DNA from: Patescibacteria group bacterium
GTDB taxonomy: Bacteria > Patescibacteriota > Microgenomatia > UBA1400 > PJMF01
Direction: 5' to 3'
DNA: 64,000 nucleotides
Assembly (NCBI GenBank): GCA_049322655.1
Contig: JBMORP010000002.1
Location: forward strand, 107,714-171,713
Shown here: positions 1,592 to 9,281 of the stretch, one piece after another
How positions within the stretch are numbered: position 1 is the first letter of the stretch
Layout of the letters: every line of letters begins with the position of its first letter
Program-made: the position numbers and the translations under genes
The notes under the pieces: generated by a model
Database searches by the model: none
Seen by the model: only the letters and a program-made list of their open reading frames with translations
What the model was told of the DNA's origin: nothing

Positions 1592-2413
1592 TTAAAGAGG
1601 TTTAATCGTAAATTCGGTACCACCAACTGGGTAGTTAAACCTGACAGCAGCAGTTCGCTCACTCATATGATGAACTCTTAAAAAGAGCTCAACAAATGGA
1701 TCATCATAGCCAGAAGAACCAAAGTTAATAGCTAAAACACCTCGATCAACCGAAAACCCACCTACCGCAACCACTCCAATCATGTTAACCCCATTAAGAA
1801 TCACTTGAATTTTTTCTCCTGGTTTCAAACCTAAATTCTTAAGATGAGAAGCCCTGGTAGTAGTTTTGATATTCCCAAAACCATCTGTCCAAGCCACTCT
1901 GTTTGGCTCAACATCTGGAATAGTGTTGATATCAAGCTCAGTAGTCAAAATAGATAAATCTCCGTTCATGACTCTAGCAACTCTTTCTGGAAAAAAATCT
2001 CTGGATCTAAACTGAGAACCTCCTGCTGGACAGTCGATGTCTCTAAACTCAACGATTTGATCCTTCATAAAACCAAAAGCATACTCTGAATAAACATTAA
2101 CTACTTCTGTTCCATTTTTAAGCCTGGCATATTTAATACCATGGTCAATATTATCCTTTTTGGCCTCAGATTTATCTCGTCTTGGAGCAGCATTACCATA
2201 AACCACCCTCTTACCATTAAAAGGAGCTAAGGCATACTGAGCCGTGACAAAACCCAAAGCAGCCGTATCCAGAGGGGGAACTTCAGTGGTATGAACCAAA
2301 ACTTGATCAGGATAATTTAAAGTATCAAAAATTCTGGTATTAATTTCACCAAACTCCATTCCGCCTGCTTTATAATCACAAACAACATGGAGAAGCTTTT
2401 TTTCTTGAGACAT
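1592..2413 (-). CDS. SAM hydroxide adenosyltransferase-like protein (DUF62; fluorinase/chlorinase family)
   Basis: SQFRSRDFFPE matches the TFxGRDxFAP motif. WTDGFGNIKTT matches the C-terminal DxPFGNvxTN motif of FlA/SalL/DUF62. TEVPPLDTAALGF resembles the N-domain EIPPxDxxAGxF. Confidence 0.55.
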   Translation of the reverse strand: MSQEKKLLHVVCDYKAGGMEFGEINTRIFDTLNYPDQVLVHTTEVPPLDTAALGFVTAQYALAPFNGKRVVYGNAAPRRDKSEAKKDNIDHGIKYARLKNGTEVVNVYSEYAFGFMKDQIVEFRDIDCPAGGSQFRSRDFFPERVARVMNGDLSILTTELDINTIPDVEPNRVAWTDGFGNIKTTTRASHLKNLGLKPGEKIQVILNGVNMIGVVAVGGFSVDRGVLAINFGSSGYDDPFVELFLRVHHMSERTAAVRFNYPVGGTEFTIKPL

Positions 2414-2509
2414 GTAATGTTTCCTTAAATATAGTAATTAAATTGATTAATAAGAGGCCTCTATTGTACCAAGCCTGGTATATCTTGCAATCTGCGATAT
2501 AATCAGCCA

Positions 2510-3457
2510 ATGACCAAAAAACCCACTAAAACCACCCCTACCAAAACTAAACAGGCAGATAAAGGCCAGTCTCTAATTGCCCCAAATAGCCAAGTAACTA
2601 TTACTTTAAATAAAAAAACCGTTGAGAATAAATACCAAGCTGTCTTAACTTCATTAGCCAAAAAACTTTCCATAGCTGGCTTTAGAAAAGGTAATGTACC
2701 TATAAAAATTGCCGAAGAACATCTTGGAGAAAACAAAATCATTCAACAAGTCCTTGATGAACTCATTCCTGAGGCTTACACCAACGCAATTAAAGACAAT
2801 AAAAAAGCTCCTATTACTAGACCTGAGTTTGCTATCACTTCAGTGGAAAAAGGTAAAGATTGGGTCCTTGAAGCTTATTTTGCTGAAATTCCAGAAGTAT
2901 CAACTCAAAAATATGAAGCTTTTGTTAAAACTGGAGCTAAAGCAGGAGATAAAGCGATTGCTCAAACTAAAAAAGACCGAGAAACTAATAAAAAAGATAG
3001 TAAAACAAACCAAGTTCCTGATTTAACTGCAGACCAAGAAAAAGAAATTAAACTTCAACATATTTTTAAAGAACTAGTTGCAGGCTTGAAACCTCAAGTA
3101 CCAGAAATGTTGTTAAAACAAGAAACTCAACATGAATTTGAACATATTTCCAGTCAGCTGCAACAACTTAATATGTCTGTTGACGATTATCTAAAACGCA
3201 GACAAATAACCATGGAAGATCTTTCTCAAGATTTAGCAGTTTCTACCCTAGGTAGACTGCAATTAGATTTAATTCTTGGGGCTATTGCCAAAACTAAAAA
3301 ACTCCAGGTAACTGATCAAGATAAAGAAAACTACTTCCAAAGTATTAAAGATGAAAAAACTAGAGAACAACTCAAAAAAGATAGTCACTATTTGGGCCAT
3401 TTAGAAACTAACCTACTCAAACAAAAAGTAGTAGACCATTTGTTGGAACTTGCGTAG
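2510..3457 (+). CDS. tig: trigger factor, short form (N-terminal ribosome-binding and C-terminal domains; the PPIase domain appears absent)
   Basis: AGFRKGNVPIKIAEEHLG is the trigger-factor signature GFRxGxxP. Only 315 aa versus about 430 aa typical. Confidence 0.6.
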   Translation: MTKKPTKTTPTKTKQADKGQSLIAPNSQVTITLNKKTVENKYQAVLTSLAKKLSIAGFRKGNVPIKIAEEHLGENKIIQQVLDELIPEAYTNAIKDNKKAPITRPEFAITSVEKGKDWVLEAYFAEIPEVSTQKYEAFVKTGAKAGDKAIAQTKKDRETNKKDSKTNQVPDLTADQEKEIKLQHIFKELVAGLKPQVPEMLLKQETQHEFEHISSQLQQLNMSVDDYLKRRQITMEDLSQDLAVSTLGRLQLDLILGAIAKTKKLQVTDQDKENYFQSIKDEKTREQLKKDSHYLGHLETNLLKQKVVDHLLELA

Positions 3458-3545
3458 AATTCTAGTTAGTCAAAGATCTTTACCAACTGCCCAGACAGTT
3501 TTGATTGACAAAATAGGCCTTTTAGACCTATAATAAACACTATCG

Positions 3546-4208
3546 ATGAATAATTTGGGCCAAAGTAAAAAACCAGCTAGCCAAAACTCAGGCATTAATC
3601 CTTTTGCTAGGGCTTTGGTTGAGCATGGTTCCAGATCAGACGACAAAAATAACCAGGCAAAATCAAATAACCAACTTTTTAGTGAAGCTTTAGCCAAAAC
3701 TGGGGGAGAGCTTAATCAAGAAGACACCCCAAAGACAGCTCAAAGAAATCTAGAACAACAGCAACAAGAATTAAAAACTCAACAAGAACGTGAGATCCTA
3801 AGAAAAAAACTCCATGACAAGGTTAATCCTGTTGATAACCATGATGTTTTTGAGGCTCGTAAAGAAAGAGAGCTCAAAGAAATCGACCAACTAAGAAAAG
3901 AAGTTGCCTTACTCATGGCTGATATTGGCTCGCTGCAAAAAGAAGCCGAAGTAACCCTAATGACCCAAATCGCAGATCCAGGTCAAGAAGGAAGTTATTT
4001 TAAAAACTTTTTTGCCAAACTTAGAAGCTTCATCATGTTACTCCGCCAGAAGGTAAAAAGTGCTAGGACTTGGGCCAAACAAATGAATTCTAGAAAAAAG
4101 AAAATGGCTAAACGTAGAGGTGGAGGCATGGTGGTTAATACTCAAGAAACTAAGTTTGTTCAAGATACCATGCATCATGAAAAAGCCACTGCTTATAGTG
4201 GTAGCTAA
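3546..4208 (+). CDS. hypothetical charged/coiled-coil protein with a basic C-terminus
   Basis: ORF only. Gln/Glu/Lys-rich, with a predicted coiled coil. Confidence 0.35.
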   Translation: MNNLGQSKKPASQNSGINPFARALVEHGSRSDDKNNQAKSNNQLFSEALAKTGGELNQEDTPKTAQRNLEQQQQELKTQQEREILRKKLHDKVNPVDNHDVFEARKERELKEIDQLRKEVALLMADIGSLQKEAEVTLMTQIADPGQEGSYFKNFFAKLRSFIMLLRQKVKSARTWAKQMNSRKKKMAKRRGGGMVVNTQETKFVQDTMHHEKATAYSGS

Positions 4209-4249: not shown

Positions 4250-4440
4250 CAGTGTTGTGAGCTCGAGTGAGACAGGTGAGCTTGCTCGTTTCACCAGCAT
4301 AACCTCGATTTCATTACGGTTATGTTTCTGGTTTCACTTGCGCTTCCTCACGCTATCCAGCATAGTGCACTTCGTTTGCACTATGTACTTGATAGAACGA
4401 ACCAGAAGCTTCTCATTACCAACTCAAAACTCAAAATAGT

Positions 4441-4470
4441 AAAAAAAGATCCAAACTTGGATCTTTCTTT
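4441..4470 (-). terminator. intrinsic terminator downstream of tRNA-Val (works in either direction)
   Basis: AGATCCAAACTTGGATCT hairpin flanked by an A-run and a T-rich stretch. Confidence 0.5.
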
Positions 4471-4477
4471 ACTACTG

Positions 4478-4551
4478 TGAGCTCGAGGGGACTCGAACCT
4501 CTGACCTCTTCGATGTCAACGAAGCGCTCTAACCAACTGAGCTACGAGCTC
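4478..4551 (-). tRNA. tRNA-Val (anticodon GAC)
   Basis: The reverse complement folds as a cloverleaf: acceptor GAGCTCG/CGAGCTC, D-arm GCTCAGTTGGTTAGAGC, anticodon loop TTGACAT, T-loop TTCGAGT, discriminator A. No encoded CCA. Confidence 0.85.
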
Positions 4552-5502: not shown

Positions 5503-5862
5503 ATGCCAAGAGTAAAAACCGGAGTCGTTCGTCGAAGAGCTCATAAAAAAGTTTTGCAACAAAATAAAGGCTATAGAGGAACTAATAGCCGTCTTTACAA
5601 AAGAGCCAAAGAAGCTAATCTTCATGCCGCTCAATATGCCTTTGTTGGTCGTAAACTCAGAAAAAGAGATATGAGAAAACTTTGGATTTCTAGAATTAAT
5701 GCAGCCTTAACTGCCGTCGGAAGTTCTTTAAACTACTCAAGATTTCTTAACGGTCTCAAAAAAGCTAGTATTGCTTTAAACAGAAAAATGCTTTCTCAAA
5801 TTGCTATTAAAGACGAACAAGCATTTAGAGAAGTAGTAGCTAAAGTTGAAAAAACTAAATAA
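5503..5862 (+). CDS. rplT: 50S ribosomal protein L20
   Basis: [26 protein letters not shown]...[14 protein letters not shown] is L20. Confidence 0.9.
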
Positions 5863-5883
5863 TTCTGTTAGGTTAGATTAGTT

Positions 5884-6019
5884 GTGAAAACTTTGTCCTT
5901 ATTTATTAACCGCTCTTGCAAGAACTTCTTTTTTCAAAGAGGTAGTGGGGTGGTGAAGTAAATTCAGATAAAGTAAAAATAAATAGAAAACCACCCCGCT
6001 TCACCAAGCGGGGTTTTTA
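5884..6019 (+). promoter_or_regulatory. putative pheST transcription attenuator: a 25-codon leader ORF with three tandem Phe codons, an antiterminator helix and an intrinsic terminator
   Basis: The leader ORF starts at GTG 5884 (MKTLSLFINRSCKNFFFQRGSGVVK*) and ends at 5961. GGGGTGGT (5947-5954) can pair with ACCACCCC (5990-5997). That pairing overlaps the 5' arm of the terminator CCCCGC(ttcaccaa)GCGGGG+TTTTT (5994-6018). Confidence 0.4.
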
Positions 6020-6036
6020 GTTTTCAGGAAGGAAAT

Positions 6037-6207
6037 ATGAGAGAAAAACTAACTTATTTCTCACACTTAGCTAATCAACATCACTATAATCGCCTCCAAG
6101 CCAAAGAAGACTGGAAAGCAGCTGGTCTACTAGAAAAAGCCCAGCAACAGGCCCAAAATATTAAACAGACAACAACTTTAACTAAAGAAAGAAATAATCA
6201 AAGCTAA
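6037..6207 (+). CDS. small hypothetical protein (56 aa), not in the ORF track
   Basis: ATG preceded by GGAAGGAAAT (a Shine-Dalgarno-like sequence). Encodes MREKLTYFSHLANQHHYNRLQAKEDW..., hydrophilic. It lies between the attenuator terminator and pheS. Confidence 0.3.
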   Translation: MREKLTYFSHLANQHHYNRLQAKEDWKAAGLLEKAQQQAQNIKQTTTLTKERNNQS

Positions 6208-6255
6208 AGAAACTCCTGTTAATTATTTTCCTTAGCCTGGTAGAATAGAGAAACT

Positions 6256-7311
6256 ATGTCAGATCACTCTTTAGAAAAACTTCAATTAGAGATTGAAAAA
6301 ACTAAAAATCAGTTTGATCAGGATCATAATTCGGTTACAACTAAAAAAATAACTTATTTAGGCAAAAGAGGTCTTTTTAATGAGCTTTCTAAAGAAATCA
6401 TAAATGTCGATCCCCAACAAAGAAAACAAGCAGGCCAGTTGTTAAATGAACTAAAAAACTATTTACAAACCAACTTGGAAAAAACCGAGCAAAACCAAAC
6501 AAATTGGGTTGATTTAACTTTACCAGCAACCAAACCAACTATTGGTCATCTTCATCCAATTTCTCAAGCAATCGAACAAATCTCTCATATCTTCGAAAAA
6601 ATCGGGTTTACTAGGGTCAGATATCCAGAAGCAGATTGGGATTACTATGCATTTGAAGCCCTCAATATGCCCGCTGATCATCCTGCACGTGACGAATGGG
6701 AGACTTTCTTTATTAAGGCTACTCAAAATAAAAAAATGGGTAAAATGGTCCTCACTCCTCATACTTCTAATGGCCAAGTCAGAGAGATGGAGAGATTAAA
6801 GAGTAAACCACCAATTAGAATGGTTAATATTGCCCGTTGTTATCGTCGGCAACAAGATGTTACCCACACACAAATGTTTCATCAGTTTGAAGGCTTAGTG
6901 GTTGATCAAGGGATTAATATTCAACATCTTAAAGGCACCTTAGATTATTTTGCTCAAGAATTTTATGGACCTGGTACTAAAAGCAGAATTAGACCCTTTC
7001 ACTTTCAATTCACCGAACCTTCCTTTGAGGTAGACTTTAGTTGTCATCTTTGTAATGGCACCGGTCTGATTAAAAACGAGCATGGAGACAAACAAAAATG
7101 TGGTTTATGCAAATCAGGTTGGCATGAAGTAGGTGGAGCTGGCATGGTTCACCCTAATGTTTTAAAAGCAGGTGGTATCGATCCTCAAAAATATACTGGA
7201 TTTGCTTTTGGTTGGGGAGTAGAACGAACCTACACCTTACAAAAAGGTTTAAATATTGATGATATTAGGTACTTCTATTCTGGAGAAACCAGGTTTTTAA
7301 AACAATTCTAG
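6256..7311 (+). CDS. pheS: phenylalanine--tRNA ligase alpha subunit
   Basis: FQFTEPSFEVDF and FAFGWGVERT are class II motifs. The Cys-rich CxxC...CxxC GW insert is present. Confidence 0.9.
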   Translation: MSDHSLEKLQLEIEKTKNQFDQDHNSVTTKKITYLGKRGLFNELSKEIINVDPQQRKQAGQLLNELKNYLQTNLEKTEQNQTNWVDLTLPATKPTIGHLHPISQAIEQISHIFEKIGFTRVRYPEADWDYYAFEALNMPADHPARDEWETFFIKATQNKKMGKMVLTPHTSNGQVREMERLKSKPPIRMVNIARCYRRQQDVTHTQMFHQFEGLVVDQGINIQHLKGTLDYFAQEFYGPGTKSRIRPFHFQFTEPSFEVDFSCHLCNGTGLIKNEHGDKQKCGLCKSGWHEVGGAGMVHPNVLKAGGIDPQKYTGFAFGWGVERTYTLQKGLNIDDIRYFYSGETRFLKQF

Positions 7312-7319
7312 GAAAACAT

Positions 7320-9281
7320 ATGAATATCCTCATCCCTCACCAATGGTTATTAGAGCAACTTAGAACAGAGCTTAAACCAGAAAAAATTCAAGAATATGTC
7401 TCTTTGTGTGGCCCCTCAATTGAAAGGATCTACCAACGTGGTAAAGATCAAGTCTATGATATTGAAATCACCACCAACAGAGTTGATAGCATGTCAGTCA
7501 GAGGTTTTGCCAGAGAAGCTGCTGTTATTTTGGAACAATTTGGTATTCCTGCCAAATTAGTTAAACCAGCCACTTTAAAAAAACTTGACCCAAAAAATCA
7601 CTTACCTTTACCCAAAATTATTGATCAAAAAAAACTGTGCCAAAGAATCTTGGGAGTTGTCTTACAAGATGTTCAACGTACTTCTACACCAAACTGGATG
7701 GCAGACAGATTAATGCAGATAGAACAAAATTCTCACGAGAGTGCGATTGATATCACTAACTATGTTACTCATGAGTTAGGACATCCTATCCACGCCTTTG
7801 ATTATGACAAAATCATGGAGCTGGGTGGAGAGATTCATGTCACCGAAGCCAAAAAAGGGGACAGATTTACTACTTTAGATGGTGAAGATTATGAGTGCGT
7901 AGGTGGAGAGATTGTTTTTAAAAATCAGGCTGATGTGATTATTGATCTACCTTCAATCAAAGGAACAGCTAATTCATCTATTAACAACCAAACCAAAAAC
8001 ATCTTGTTATGGATTGAGTCAATCGAACCCAAAAAAGTTAGATTTGCCTCAATGACTCATGCCATTAGAACGACTGCAGCTCAGTTAACAGAAAAGGGTC
8101 TAGATCCTCACTTGGCCACGGCGACTTTTTATCGAGCAATTGGACTTTACCAAGATCTTTGTCAGGCCAAAATTGCTAGCAATATTTATGATTCATTTAT
8201 TCAAACTAAAAAACCACCAACCATTATTATGGATTTCGAGAAGATCGATAATTACCTGGGTTTGAAAATTGAAAAAAATAAAATAGAACAGATTCTCAAA
8301 AAATTGGAATGCCAAGTTGAAATAGTTAATAACACTCTTCATATCCAGCCACCTACTTTCCGCAAAGATCTAAATACTCCTGTAGATATTGTTGAAGAAA
8401 TCGCCAGAATTTATGGCTACCACAACTTACCAAGTGTCTTAATGCCAACTAGTATTCCTTTAATCAAACCAAAAGCAGTTAATTTTGAGTTTGAAGAAAA
8501 GGTCAAACACTTTTTGGCTGCACTTGGTTGGTTTGAAGTTTATAGCTATTCAATGGTGAGTGAAGAACTCGCCAAACAATCAGGTTTCACCATTGAACAG
8601 CATCTAAGCTTGGCCAACTCACTAACTGAAGACAAAGTTTACTTAAGAAGGTCATTGATTCCTTCCTTGTTAGAGATCATTGCCAATAACACTCAAGAAG
8701 AACAGTTGGCTGTTTTTGAAATAGCTAATGTCTATCATCCAAAAGAAAATCAACTCCCAGCTGAAAAATTAACTTTAGGTTTAGTTTCACAAAAAACACT
8801 GAGACAAACCAAGGGTGATTTAGCAGCCTTATTAACCAAGTTTTACTTGCCTGAATTTTTAGTTGAGCAAGTAAACAAAAATAACCAAGGTTTAGTTAAA
8901 ATCGAAGATACTGTCATTGGAAAAATTTGGGTCGAGAAAAAAAACACCTGTGTTGAATTAGAAATTGAAAAATTATTACCTTTAATTAAATTTCACCCTA
9001 GTTATCAACCACTCCCCAAAACAGCTAGTGTTAAAGAAACCCTAACTTTTACATTACCGGAAAAAACTTTAGTTGGAGAGGTGTTGCTCACGATCAAAAA
9101 CTCAGATCAAAAATTAATTAATGTAGAACTGACAGACATTTATAAAAATAATTACACCTTCGCCCTAGAATACTGGGATCCCAAAAACAATCTTGCTGGT
9201 AATGATATTAAACCCATTAGAAAAAAGATCGTTAAAAAAGTTGAACAAGAATATACCGCTAAGTTAGTAGGCAAAATTTAA
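7320..9281 (+). CDS. pheT: phenylalanine--tRNA ligase beta subunit (short, 653 aa)
   Basis: N-terminal B1 domain (ITTNRVDSMSVRGFAREAAV) and B3/4 and B5 regions are present. It follows pheS with a 9-nt gap. Confidence 0.85.
   Translation: MNILIPHQWLLEQLRTELKPEKIQEYVSLCGPSIERIYQRGKDQVYDIEITTNRVDSMSVRGFAREAAVILEQFGIPAKLVKPATLKKLDPKNHLPLPKIIDQKKLCQRILGVVLQDVQRTSTPNWMADRLMQIEQNSHESAIDITNYVTHELGHPIHAFDYDKIMELGGEIHVTEAKKGDRFTTLDGEDYECVGGEIVFKNQADVIIDLPSIKGTANSSINNQTKNILLWIESIEPKKVRFASMTHAIRTTAAQLTEKGLDPHLATATFYRAIGLYQDLCQAKIASNIYDSFIQTKKPPTIIMDFEKIDNYLGLKIEKNKIEQILKKLECQVEIVNNTLHIQPPTFRKDLNTPVDIVEEIARIYGYHNLPSVLMPTSIPLIKPKAVNFEFEEKVKHFLAALGWFEVYSYSMVSEELAKQSGFTIEQHLSLANSLTEDKVYLRRSLIPSLLEIIANNTQEEQLAVFEIANVYHPKENQLPAEKLTLGLVSQKTLRQTKGDLAALLTKFYLPEFLVEQVNKNNQGLVKIEDTVIGKIWVEKKNTCVELEIEKLLPLIKFHPSYQPLPKTASVKETLTFTLPEKTLVGEVLLTIKNSDQKLINVELTDIYKNNYTFALEYWDPKNNLAGNDIKPIRKKIVKKVEQEYTAKLVGKI

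Follow-up and report, generated by a model that had tools for sequence, protein, structure and literature searches.

Leader-peptide systems were known by 2010 from Proteobacteria and Actinobacteria, and new cases had been added from Firmicutes (PMC2965389). In Streptomyces, classical attenuators precede trpS and leuS, and in gamma-proteobacteria they precede pheST (PMC1262725). The locus described here lies in a 64,000-nucleotide (nt) stretch of a Patescibacteria group genome (a 'Pacebacteria'-type member; GenBank contig JBMORP010000002.1, positions 107,714 to 171,713), which is referred to as the window and whose numbering is used throughout. The gap between rplT and pheS in the window probably contains a ribosome-mediated leader-peptide attenuator that would respond to phenylalanine (Phe) and act on pheST, as judged from the sequence, from folding models and from comparison with related genomes. 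The mechanism is a textbook one; what was found is an un-annotated instance in a phylum for which no earlier report was found, and the presence, conservation and possibly leaderless mode of the element in Patescibacteria are the informative part. Full-text searches, which were of limited coverage and leave novelty unproven, returned nothing on attenuation or leader peptides in Patescibacteria or the candidate phyla radiation (CPR). To our knowledge, gene regulation has hardly been explored in this group, whose members are uncultured or epibiotic, have reduced genomes and obtain amino acids from other cells.

The nearest counterpart is the pheST attenuator of Escherichia coli with its leader pheM (Rfam RF01859), which controls the same genes in the same infC-rpmI-rplT-leader-pheS-pheT order. 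This likeness had been pointed out in an earlier note made from the window sequence alone (the original prediction), and it is borne out by the Pfam domains of the window, which occur in the order IF3, L35, L20, PheS, PheT, and by comparison with the E. coli locus. pheM is likewise a short leader with clustered Phe codons. The sequence GGAGGCT at or just after its stop codon is the same as the terminator 3' arm and forms a G-rich segment as in the window, lying 14 nt from the last Phe codon when read from the sequence, and the regulatory logic of the two is presumably the same. However, there is no detectable sequence or covariance-model similarity between them. In E. coli, rplT has a terminator of its own and about 120 nt precede pheM, whereas in the window the leader starts 21 nt after rplT and one terminator serves both purposes; here the leader is longer (25 codons, four Phe) and, unlike in E. 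coli, a gene for a protein of 56 amino acids (aa) and a second promoter separate the attenuator from pheS. The organisms also belong to different phyla, Patescibacteria in the case of the window and Gammaproteobacteria in that of E. coli.

The attenuators of trp, his, leu and pheA have the four-segment design that is predicted here, with the regulatory codons inside the helix formed by segments 1 and 2 (1:2) and an intrinsic terminator, but here the target is an aminoacyl-tRNA synthetase rather than a biosynthetic operon, and the window scores below every Rfam gathering score. The T-box of Firmicutes pheS acts on the same gene in response to the same signal, the charging of tRNA-Phe, and also through a choice between terminator and antiterminator. 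The window does not match the T-box, and sensing here would use the translating ribosome rather than direct binding of the tRNA.

Predicted leader, antiterminator and terminator between rplT and pheS

A leader open reading frame (ORF) of 25 codons, MKTLSLFINRSCKNFFFQRGSGVVK, is found on the forward strand at 5884-5961, with a GTG start 21 nt downstream of rplT and a TAA stop at 5959-5961. It comes from the ORF list and is supported by conservation of the open frame, described below. The run of three Phe codons, TTC TTT TTT at 5926-5934, is the proposed stall site, and a fourth Phe codon is at 5902-5904. Four of the 24 residues are thus Phe (P = 0.024 against 4.7% Phe in the window as a whole). 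An intrinsic terminator was found by hairpin scan and by folding at 5993-6018 on the same strand. The original prediction had given its core as CCCCGC/GCGGGG followed by T5, but the stem is actually 9 bp long (5993-6001/6006-6014, with six G-C pairs), is closed by the 4-nt loop CACC and leads into a T tract at 6014-6018. On its own, this hairpin folds at -15.5 kcal/mol (z = -5.7).

The folds define three further segments on the forward strand. Segment 1, ACCGCTCT (5909-5916), was recovered in the minimum-free-energy folds and can pair with segment 2, GTGGGGTGGT (5945-5954), which can alternatively pair with segment 3, ACCACCCCGC (5990-5999), the 3' half of the antiterminator. The two shorter stretches originally proposed to pair, GGGGTGGT at 5947-5954 and ACCACCCC at 5990-5997, lie within segments 2 and 3 and are paired in the fold. 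Segment 3 shares seven bases, 5993-5999, with the 5' arm of the terminator, making antiterminator and terminator mutually exclusive. For the 2:3 helix by itself (5938-5999), the predicted energy is -17.4 kcal/mol (z = -4.2), the duplex of segments 2 and 3 has z = -5.7, and the antiterminator loop is 35 nt long and A-rich, unlike that of pheM.

For the whole region 5863-6036, the predicted energy is -49.2 kcal/mol (z = -3.6), a value that none of 200 shuffled sequences equalled, and this full-length fold consists of the 1:2 helix and the terminator. The 1:2 helix, which forms between ACCGCTCT and GGGGTGGT and has the Phe codons in its apical hairpin (5924-5943), was absent from the original prediction, and its presence in the fold completes a four-segment layout (1:2, 2:3, 3:4). 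Taken alone, it is no better than shuffled sequences (z = -0.5). A ribosome occupying the Phe codons was simulated by removing the RNA 5' of position 5938, and the fold of 5938-6020 then became the antiterminator (5945-5954/5990-5999; -22.5 kcal/mol, z = -3.1). In the predicted structure, masking the RNA through the Phe codons switches the terminator to the antiterminator.

The spacing of these parts agrees with the classical model. Segment 2 begins 11 nt past the last Phe codon, and 5 nt separate its end from the stop codon. Given the footprint of a bacterial ribosome, one terminating at the stop codon would cover segment 2, which lies 5-14 nt before it, while one stalled on the Phe codons just leaves segment 2 outside.

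A model for the operation of the element can be put together from these features. RNA polymerase would arrive from rplT and may also start at a weak promoter in the end of that gene, and read-through into the small ORF, pheS and pheT would be set by the supply of charged tRNA-Phe. With Phe plentiful, a ribosome would translate the 25 codons to the UAA at 5959-5961 and cover segment 2, leaving segment 3 to pair with segment 4 as the 9-bp terminator with its U tract, and transcription would stop near 6018. With Phe-tRNA scarce, the ribosome would stall on UUC UUU UUU (5926-5934), melting the 1:2 helix and freeing segment 2. The 2:3 pairing (-17.4 kcal/mol) would then be in place before segment 4 is transcribed, no terminator would form and transcription would continue. 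Without translation, the 1:2 helix would form and hence the 3:4 terminator too. That the leader is translated, that ribosomes stall on its Phe codons, that the helices compete kinetically and that both promoters are active are steps that we infer.

If this model is correct, Patescibacteria monitor the charging of tRNA-Phe, and transcription and translation would have to be tightly coupled in them, as the mechanism needs. It would also extend leader-peptide attenuation to a phylum placed among lineages that mostly use T-boxes for their synthetase genes. The element is compact and testable, with the FFF run, segment 2 and the terminator all within about 140 nt.

No other leader-peptide-like attenuator was detected when the entire 64-kb window was scanned. 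Under fairly strict criteria for a terminator-like site (a stem of at least 6 bp with at least four G-C pairs, and a T run), the attenuator hairpin was the only strong site on the forward strand of the window, and the reverse strand has eight. The single forward-strand site suggests that canonical terminators are rare in this genome.

The element in related genomes

Relatives were collected by a PheS-based scan, taking one genome per species, which produced 80 loci (designated here by L numbers). All 80 are from Patescibacteria, as metagenome-assembled genomes (MAGs) labelled 'Pacebacteria' or 'Paceibacterota' (NCBI phylum Minisyncoccota), and the rpmI-rplT-pheS synteny is kept in 66 of them. 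The rplT-pheS spacers fall into two classes. In about half of the relatives, a plain terminator is found 20-35 nt past the rplT stop codon and is followed by the pheS -10 element. The second class contains a short ORF that starts 10-25 nt past rplT and is separated from a terminator by 19-47 nt after its stop codon. This second type, with leader, antiterminator and terminator either homologous or analogous to those of the window, was found in 33 of the 80 relatives, and the curated set used for comparison is made up of these 33 and the window (n = 34).

In five genomes (L011, L015, L019, L022 and L046), pheS is not linked to rplT, yet it is preceded by a promoter, a Phe-rich leader and a terminator. 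That the element accompanies pheS without an adjacent rplT indicates that it belongs to pheS and not to rplT. The attenuator proposed originally for the rplT-pheS gap is thus both recurrent, in the 33 relatives, and portable with pheS. Some relatives (L027 at 2827-2970, L063 at 2500-2644 and L029 at about 2600-2650) have a plain rplT terminator plus a separate leader and terminator downstream, before pheS; the separate leader in L027 is MIIFDFNNLFVTMLFVLNTSITASTFFFSHLI, with seven Phe. This two-site arrangement suggests that gain, loss or relocation of the attenuator may not have depended on the rplT terminator.

Every one of the 34 members has an open leader frame. The other two frames contain 57 and 49 stop codons in the corresponding stretches, and only six members have either of them open. 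Three subfamilies of leaders could be distinguished. Long leaders resemble that of the window, for example MNKLRVRTNHSYCSFLFIQKGSGVV in L004 and MLKSCRKHTTTIFQNFLMKENAG in L072, short leaders include MTLTVTFTNFFFFSHY, MLKINTFTFFFFSHC and MTLTLNTFFFFTSI, and stand-alone leaders, found in the five genomes where pheS does not adjoin rplT, include MFTNKYFTGFFFNFQK and MTNNKFFSSFFFYFQK. Long-leader peptides are fairly conserved (...CRKHTTIIFQNFLMKENAG is seen in eight loci, for example), and this conservation largely coincides with RNA segments 1 and 2.

Phe makes up 17.7% of the 691 residues in the 34 leaders and 5.0% in the neighbouring proteins, a 3.6-fold enrichment. Cys ties with Phe for the top enrichment (3.6-fold each), but Cys residues are single and runs are formed by Phe only, FFF or FFFF being frequent and FFFF present in eight leaders. 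The short and stand-alone leaders are individually significant for Phe (P from 5e-5 to 7e-3), the stand-alone ones having 5-6 Phe among 15 residues (P down to 5e-5). Within the Phe runs, C is limited to third codon positions, as in TTT TTC TTT TTT, TTC TTC TTC TTT (L044) and TTC TTT TTC TTT. The nearest relatives of the window (L081-L083 and L085) retain FFF through a synonymous TTT to TTC change.

To compare the alternative helices, the leader region of every one of the 34 elements was paired with the 5' arm of the terminator from the same element, and the best duplex was set against those from dinucleotide-shuffled leaders. The mean z of this duplex was -3.4, and in 26 of the 34 no more than two of 200 shuffles were as good. 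The start of segment 2 always lies between -22 and +7 nt from the stop codon (34/34), and in most leaders it is 8-18 nt past the last Phe codon. All members have at least one Phe codon at a suitable distance before segment 2. Terminator cores vary among species (CCCCGC, CTCCCC, CCCGCT, ACTCCC, CCCGCC and AGCCCC) and segment 2 varies to match them (GYGGGG, GGGGAG, AGCGGG, GGGAG, GGCGGG and GGGGCT). Paired with the arm of its own species, the stop-codon window gave -13.5 kcal/mol, as against -10.5 kcal/mol with the arms of other species, and none of 10,000 permutations was as low. Full-length folds contained the terminator in 32 of the 34 members and had segment 2 paired with the upstream leader in 29. 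Conservation upstream of pheS, which had been set out as a test, was seen for leader, antiterminator and terminator in 33 of the 80 genomes, with segment 2 tracking its own terminator.

This alignment-free test of matched against mismatched species was used because the 8-sequence alignment of the window's own subfamily has too little variation. In that alignment, 90% of cells in the 2:3 helix and 84% in the 1:2 helix are paired. Close relatives have ATCACTCT as segment 1, in which both changes keep pairing (C-G to U-G and G-U to A-U) and are one-sided. An alignment of all 34 elements with MAFFT and RNAalifold recovered only four terminator pairs, as the registers differ between subfamilies, and it was not used for covariation.

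Family models

A covariance model, R1, was built from 16 relatives, leaving out the window and its near-identical kin. In the 64-kb window, it gave a single match below E = 0.1, at 5906-6023 (66.6 bits, E about 3e-10), the next best match scoring 19 bits. Training members score 56-113 bits and plain rplT terminators 31-51 bits. Below about 52 bits R1 therefore picks up plain rplT terminators and is useful at high scores only.

With the Rfam Phe_leader model (RF01859), window positions 5876-6021 scored 20.3 bits (E = 3.8), under the gathering threshold of 55 bits, whereas E. coli pheM, the positive control, scored 75 bits. Other sub-threshold Rfam matches in the window were to Trp_leader (27.9 bits) and Leu_leader (22 bits). 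The Trp_leader alignment, the only one of these inspected, matches mainly through the terminator half. The T-box (RF00230), L20_leader (RF00558) and riboswitch models had no match at E <= 10 between 4000 and 7000 in the window. An Rfam search of 30 related loci at gathering score found tRNAs only, with no Phe_leader, T-box or L20_leader. The rplT-pheS leader family is not in Rfam, and a curated model would improve annotation.

Evidence against the attenuator and alternative explanations

Several observations weigh against a Phe-responsive attenuator. In the 8-sequence subfamily that includes the window, the 2:3 and 1:2 helices are conserved without significant covariation, and shuffle controls were not exceeded. 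When the 5' part is masked, only 11 of the 34 members, the window included, have the antiterminator as their equilibrium minimum-free-energy fold; thermodynamics alone was rejected as an account of the switch on this ground, and the switch must then be kinetic, as it is in known attenuators. Long leaders, the subfamily of the window, carry only 1-4 Phe (one in L006) and are not individually enriched, and within this subfamily FFF is limited to the window and its nearest kin. The conservation of Phe codons that the original prediction had asked for is found for Phe across the 34 leaders, but in the long leaders it does not extend to the FFF run. The GTG start of the window leader lacks a conserved Shine-Dalgarno sequence and the putative promoter is weak. 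pheS also keeps a conserved promoter of its own. Finally, all of the genomes are uncultured MAGs.

The Phe-poor long leaders raise the question of whether the leader peptide senses Phe at all. An attenuator of the same build could instead respond to general translation capacity, to any slowing of the ribosome or through a nascent-peptide effect, above all in the long-leader subfamily, where the number of Phe codons is low and the peptide sequences are fairly conserved. We regard this as unlikely. The regulated genes are pheS and pheT, Phe alone forms runs even though it shares the top enrichment with Cys, and at least one Phe codon is at the right distance before segment 2 in every member. Furthermore, the FFF of the window is kept by synonymous change, and the conservation of the peptides largely overlaps RNA segments 1 and 2.

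An RNA switch that works without translation, in which a protein such as L20, a tRNA or a metabolite selects the fold and the ORF is incidental, would fit the position of the element directly after rplT, its three-helix alternative structure and the leader without a Shine-Dalgarno sequence. We nevertheless find it very improbable, given that T-box, L20_leader and riboswitch models match neither the window at E <= 10 nor the 30 loci at gathering score and that the element also occurs without rplT. The ORF does not behave as an incidental one, since it is open in all 34 members where the other frames are closed in 28, its stop codon stands in a fixed relation to segment 2 and variation in the Phe runs is confined to third codon positions. 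The simplest possibility would be a constitutive terminator of infC-rpmI-rplT, with the ORF and the complementarity present by chance and pheS expressed solely from its own promoter. About half of the relatives do have just a terminator 20-35 nt past rplT followed by the pheS -10, and that promoter is conserved. Against this, 34 species-level genomes share the combination of leader, Phe bias and matched antiterminator, which occurs in two genomic contexts, and R1 separates the window element (66.6 bits) from plain terminators (31-51 bits). We regard this possibility, too, as very improbable. The Phe-responsive attenuator is therefore the preferred reading in what follows.

Transcription entry and initiation of the leader

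No terminator lies between the rplT stop codon and the leader, and infC-rpmI-rplT transcripts therefore certainly run into the attenuator. A second entry point may be a weak promoter at 5846-5874 on the forward strand, proposed from the position of the promoter in relatives, with a -35 TTGAAA (5846-5851), a 17-nt spacer and a -10-like TAGGTT (5869-5874) that is 9 nt from the GTG. Its -10 is weak and the candidate falls under the threshold of the consensus scan. In the short-leader loci (L032 and related), a near-consensus TTGACA-17-TAAGAT (10/12 matches) is found at this place, with TTGACA in the last rplT codons, TAAGAT overlapping the rplT stop codon and the leader ATG 6-9 nt further on. The stand-alone loci have their own TTGCCA-17-TATAAT promoter 8-11 nt before the leader ATG.

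The original prediction had assigned an AGG as a Shine-Dalgarno-like sequence for the leader and suggested that the leader may be translationally coupled to rplT. Conservation does not support coupling through this AGG. L003 and L004, in which the aligned start position is ATG, lack the AGG, as do most others, and most relatives have no Shine-Dalgarno sequence of any kind before the leader. Because relatives have a promoter-like motif and no Shine-Dalgarno sequence, leaderless initiation appears at least as plausible as coupling to rplT.

Leaderless attenuators based on short ORFs, including polycysteine ORFs, have been described in mycobacteria (bioRxiv 10.1101/834739). If the promoters at the end of rplT are real, the leaders here would be alike in starting with AUG or GUG at or near the 5' end of the mRNA, without a Shine-Dalgarno sequence and with a run of codons for the sensed amino acid. 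The leaderless status of the patescibacterial ORFs is proposed from promoter-like motifs only, and the amino acid and the targets differ from those in mycobacteria. A canonical intrinsic terminator and antiterminator are present here, which is a further difference.

The small ORF and the probable pheS promoter

The first gene downstream of the attenuator is a 56-aa ORF at 6037-6207 on the forward strand, preceded by AGGAAGGA at 6026-6033. Its existence had been noted originally. L002-L004, L081 and L085 also have it, and the substitutions among them fall preferentially at third codon positions (1, 2, 6 and 1, 3, 9). It therefore looks like a real, clade-restricted gene under purifying selection, on the sequence evidence. 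It has no match to a Pfam family. A word-index search of 5.8 billion proteins found two near-identical proteins, and an exhaustive search found seven weak or small matches, two of which were to long repetitive proteins.

L055-type loci have an analogous ORF, about 60 aa long, at the corresponding position. ORFs of about 56-65 aa were seen between attenuator and pheS in L055, L057, L059, L065-L067, L072, L080, L012 and L006. The small proteins are of more than one type (...FSHLANQH..EDWKAAGLLEKA in the window, ...QSNSPELYLLAYLKELG in L055) and are rarely called as genes. Like the 56-aa gene, the short leader ORFs are mostly uncalled at present.

The extended -10 element that the original prediction placed at pheS is present at 6238-6246 on the forward strand (TGgTAGAAT), 9 nt before the pheS ATG at 6256, and is identical or near-identical in L001-L004. 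In 39 of 75 relatives, a -10 hexamer with at least five of six matches is found 4-14 nt, mostly 6-9 nt, before the pheS ATG, compared with 3.6% at random ATGs. The hexamers are TAGAAT, TACAAT or TATAAT, often with an upstream TGn, and they are also found in species where the plain rplT terminator directly precedes the hexamer. The element at 6238-6246 is thus probably part of a promoter in its own right, from which pheS would be transcribed as a leaderless or near-leaderless mRNA. Conservation of the -10 right before the ATG suggests that this promoter would provide basal expression of pheS, also from a leaderless mRNA, to which the attenuator would add a component inducible by starvation. The leader ORFs and pheS show the same short spacing from the -10 to the start codon, and leaderless initiation may be common in this clade.

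A broader and more tentative proposal, which we consider possible but rather doubtful, is that these features belong to a design that is general in Patescibacteria and differs from the textbook attenuator. It would combine leaderless leader peptides, transcribed from a promoter in the last rplT codons or from a stand-alone one, with a tandem leaderless pheS promoter. The long leaders, which are Phe-poor but conserved in sequence, and the small co-transcribed protein (about 56 aa) might then add a second layer of control to stalling at Phe codons, through a nascent-peptide effect or as a partner of PheRS.

Other features of the locus and its relatives

The genes that flank the attenuator are on the forward strand. 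Ribosomal protein L20 is encoded by rplT at 5503-5862 (Pfam Ribosomal_L20, E = 6e-38). The pheS gene at 6256-7311 has the domains tRNA-synt_2d and Phe_tRNA-synt_N, and pheT at 7320-9281 has B3_4, B5, tRNA_synthFbeta and FDX-ACB.

Ten of the 80 relatives (L005, L008, L017, L020, L023, L025, L030, L050, L054 and L068) have a PheS with an N-terminal extension of about 270 aa. In L023, the extended protein is 617 aa long and is encoded at 2104-3957. Its N-terminal extension is AlaX-like, with an H-x-x-x-H motif and similarity to the C-terminal portion of the AlaRS catalytic-domain family (Pfam tRNA-synt_2c). The 'long intergenic regions' of some relatives had been considered as regulatory RNA, but this was rejected as they correspond to the AlaX-like domain fused to PheS. 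The loci with extended PheS have a plain rplT terminator and no leader.

At the other end of the locus, a tRNA-Val(GAC) gene is found at 4477-4551 on the reverse strand, divergent from infC, and is followed on the same strand by a 19-bp hairpin at 4435-4476. A tRNA is present at the equivalent site upstream of infC in at least 17 of the related loci.

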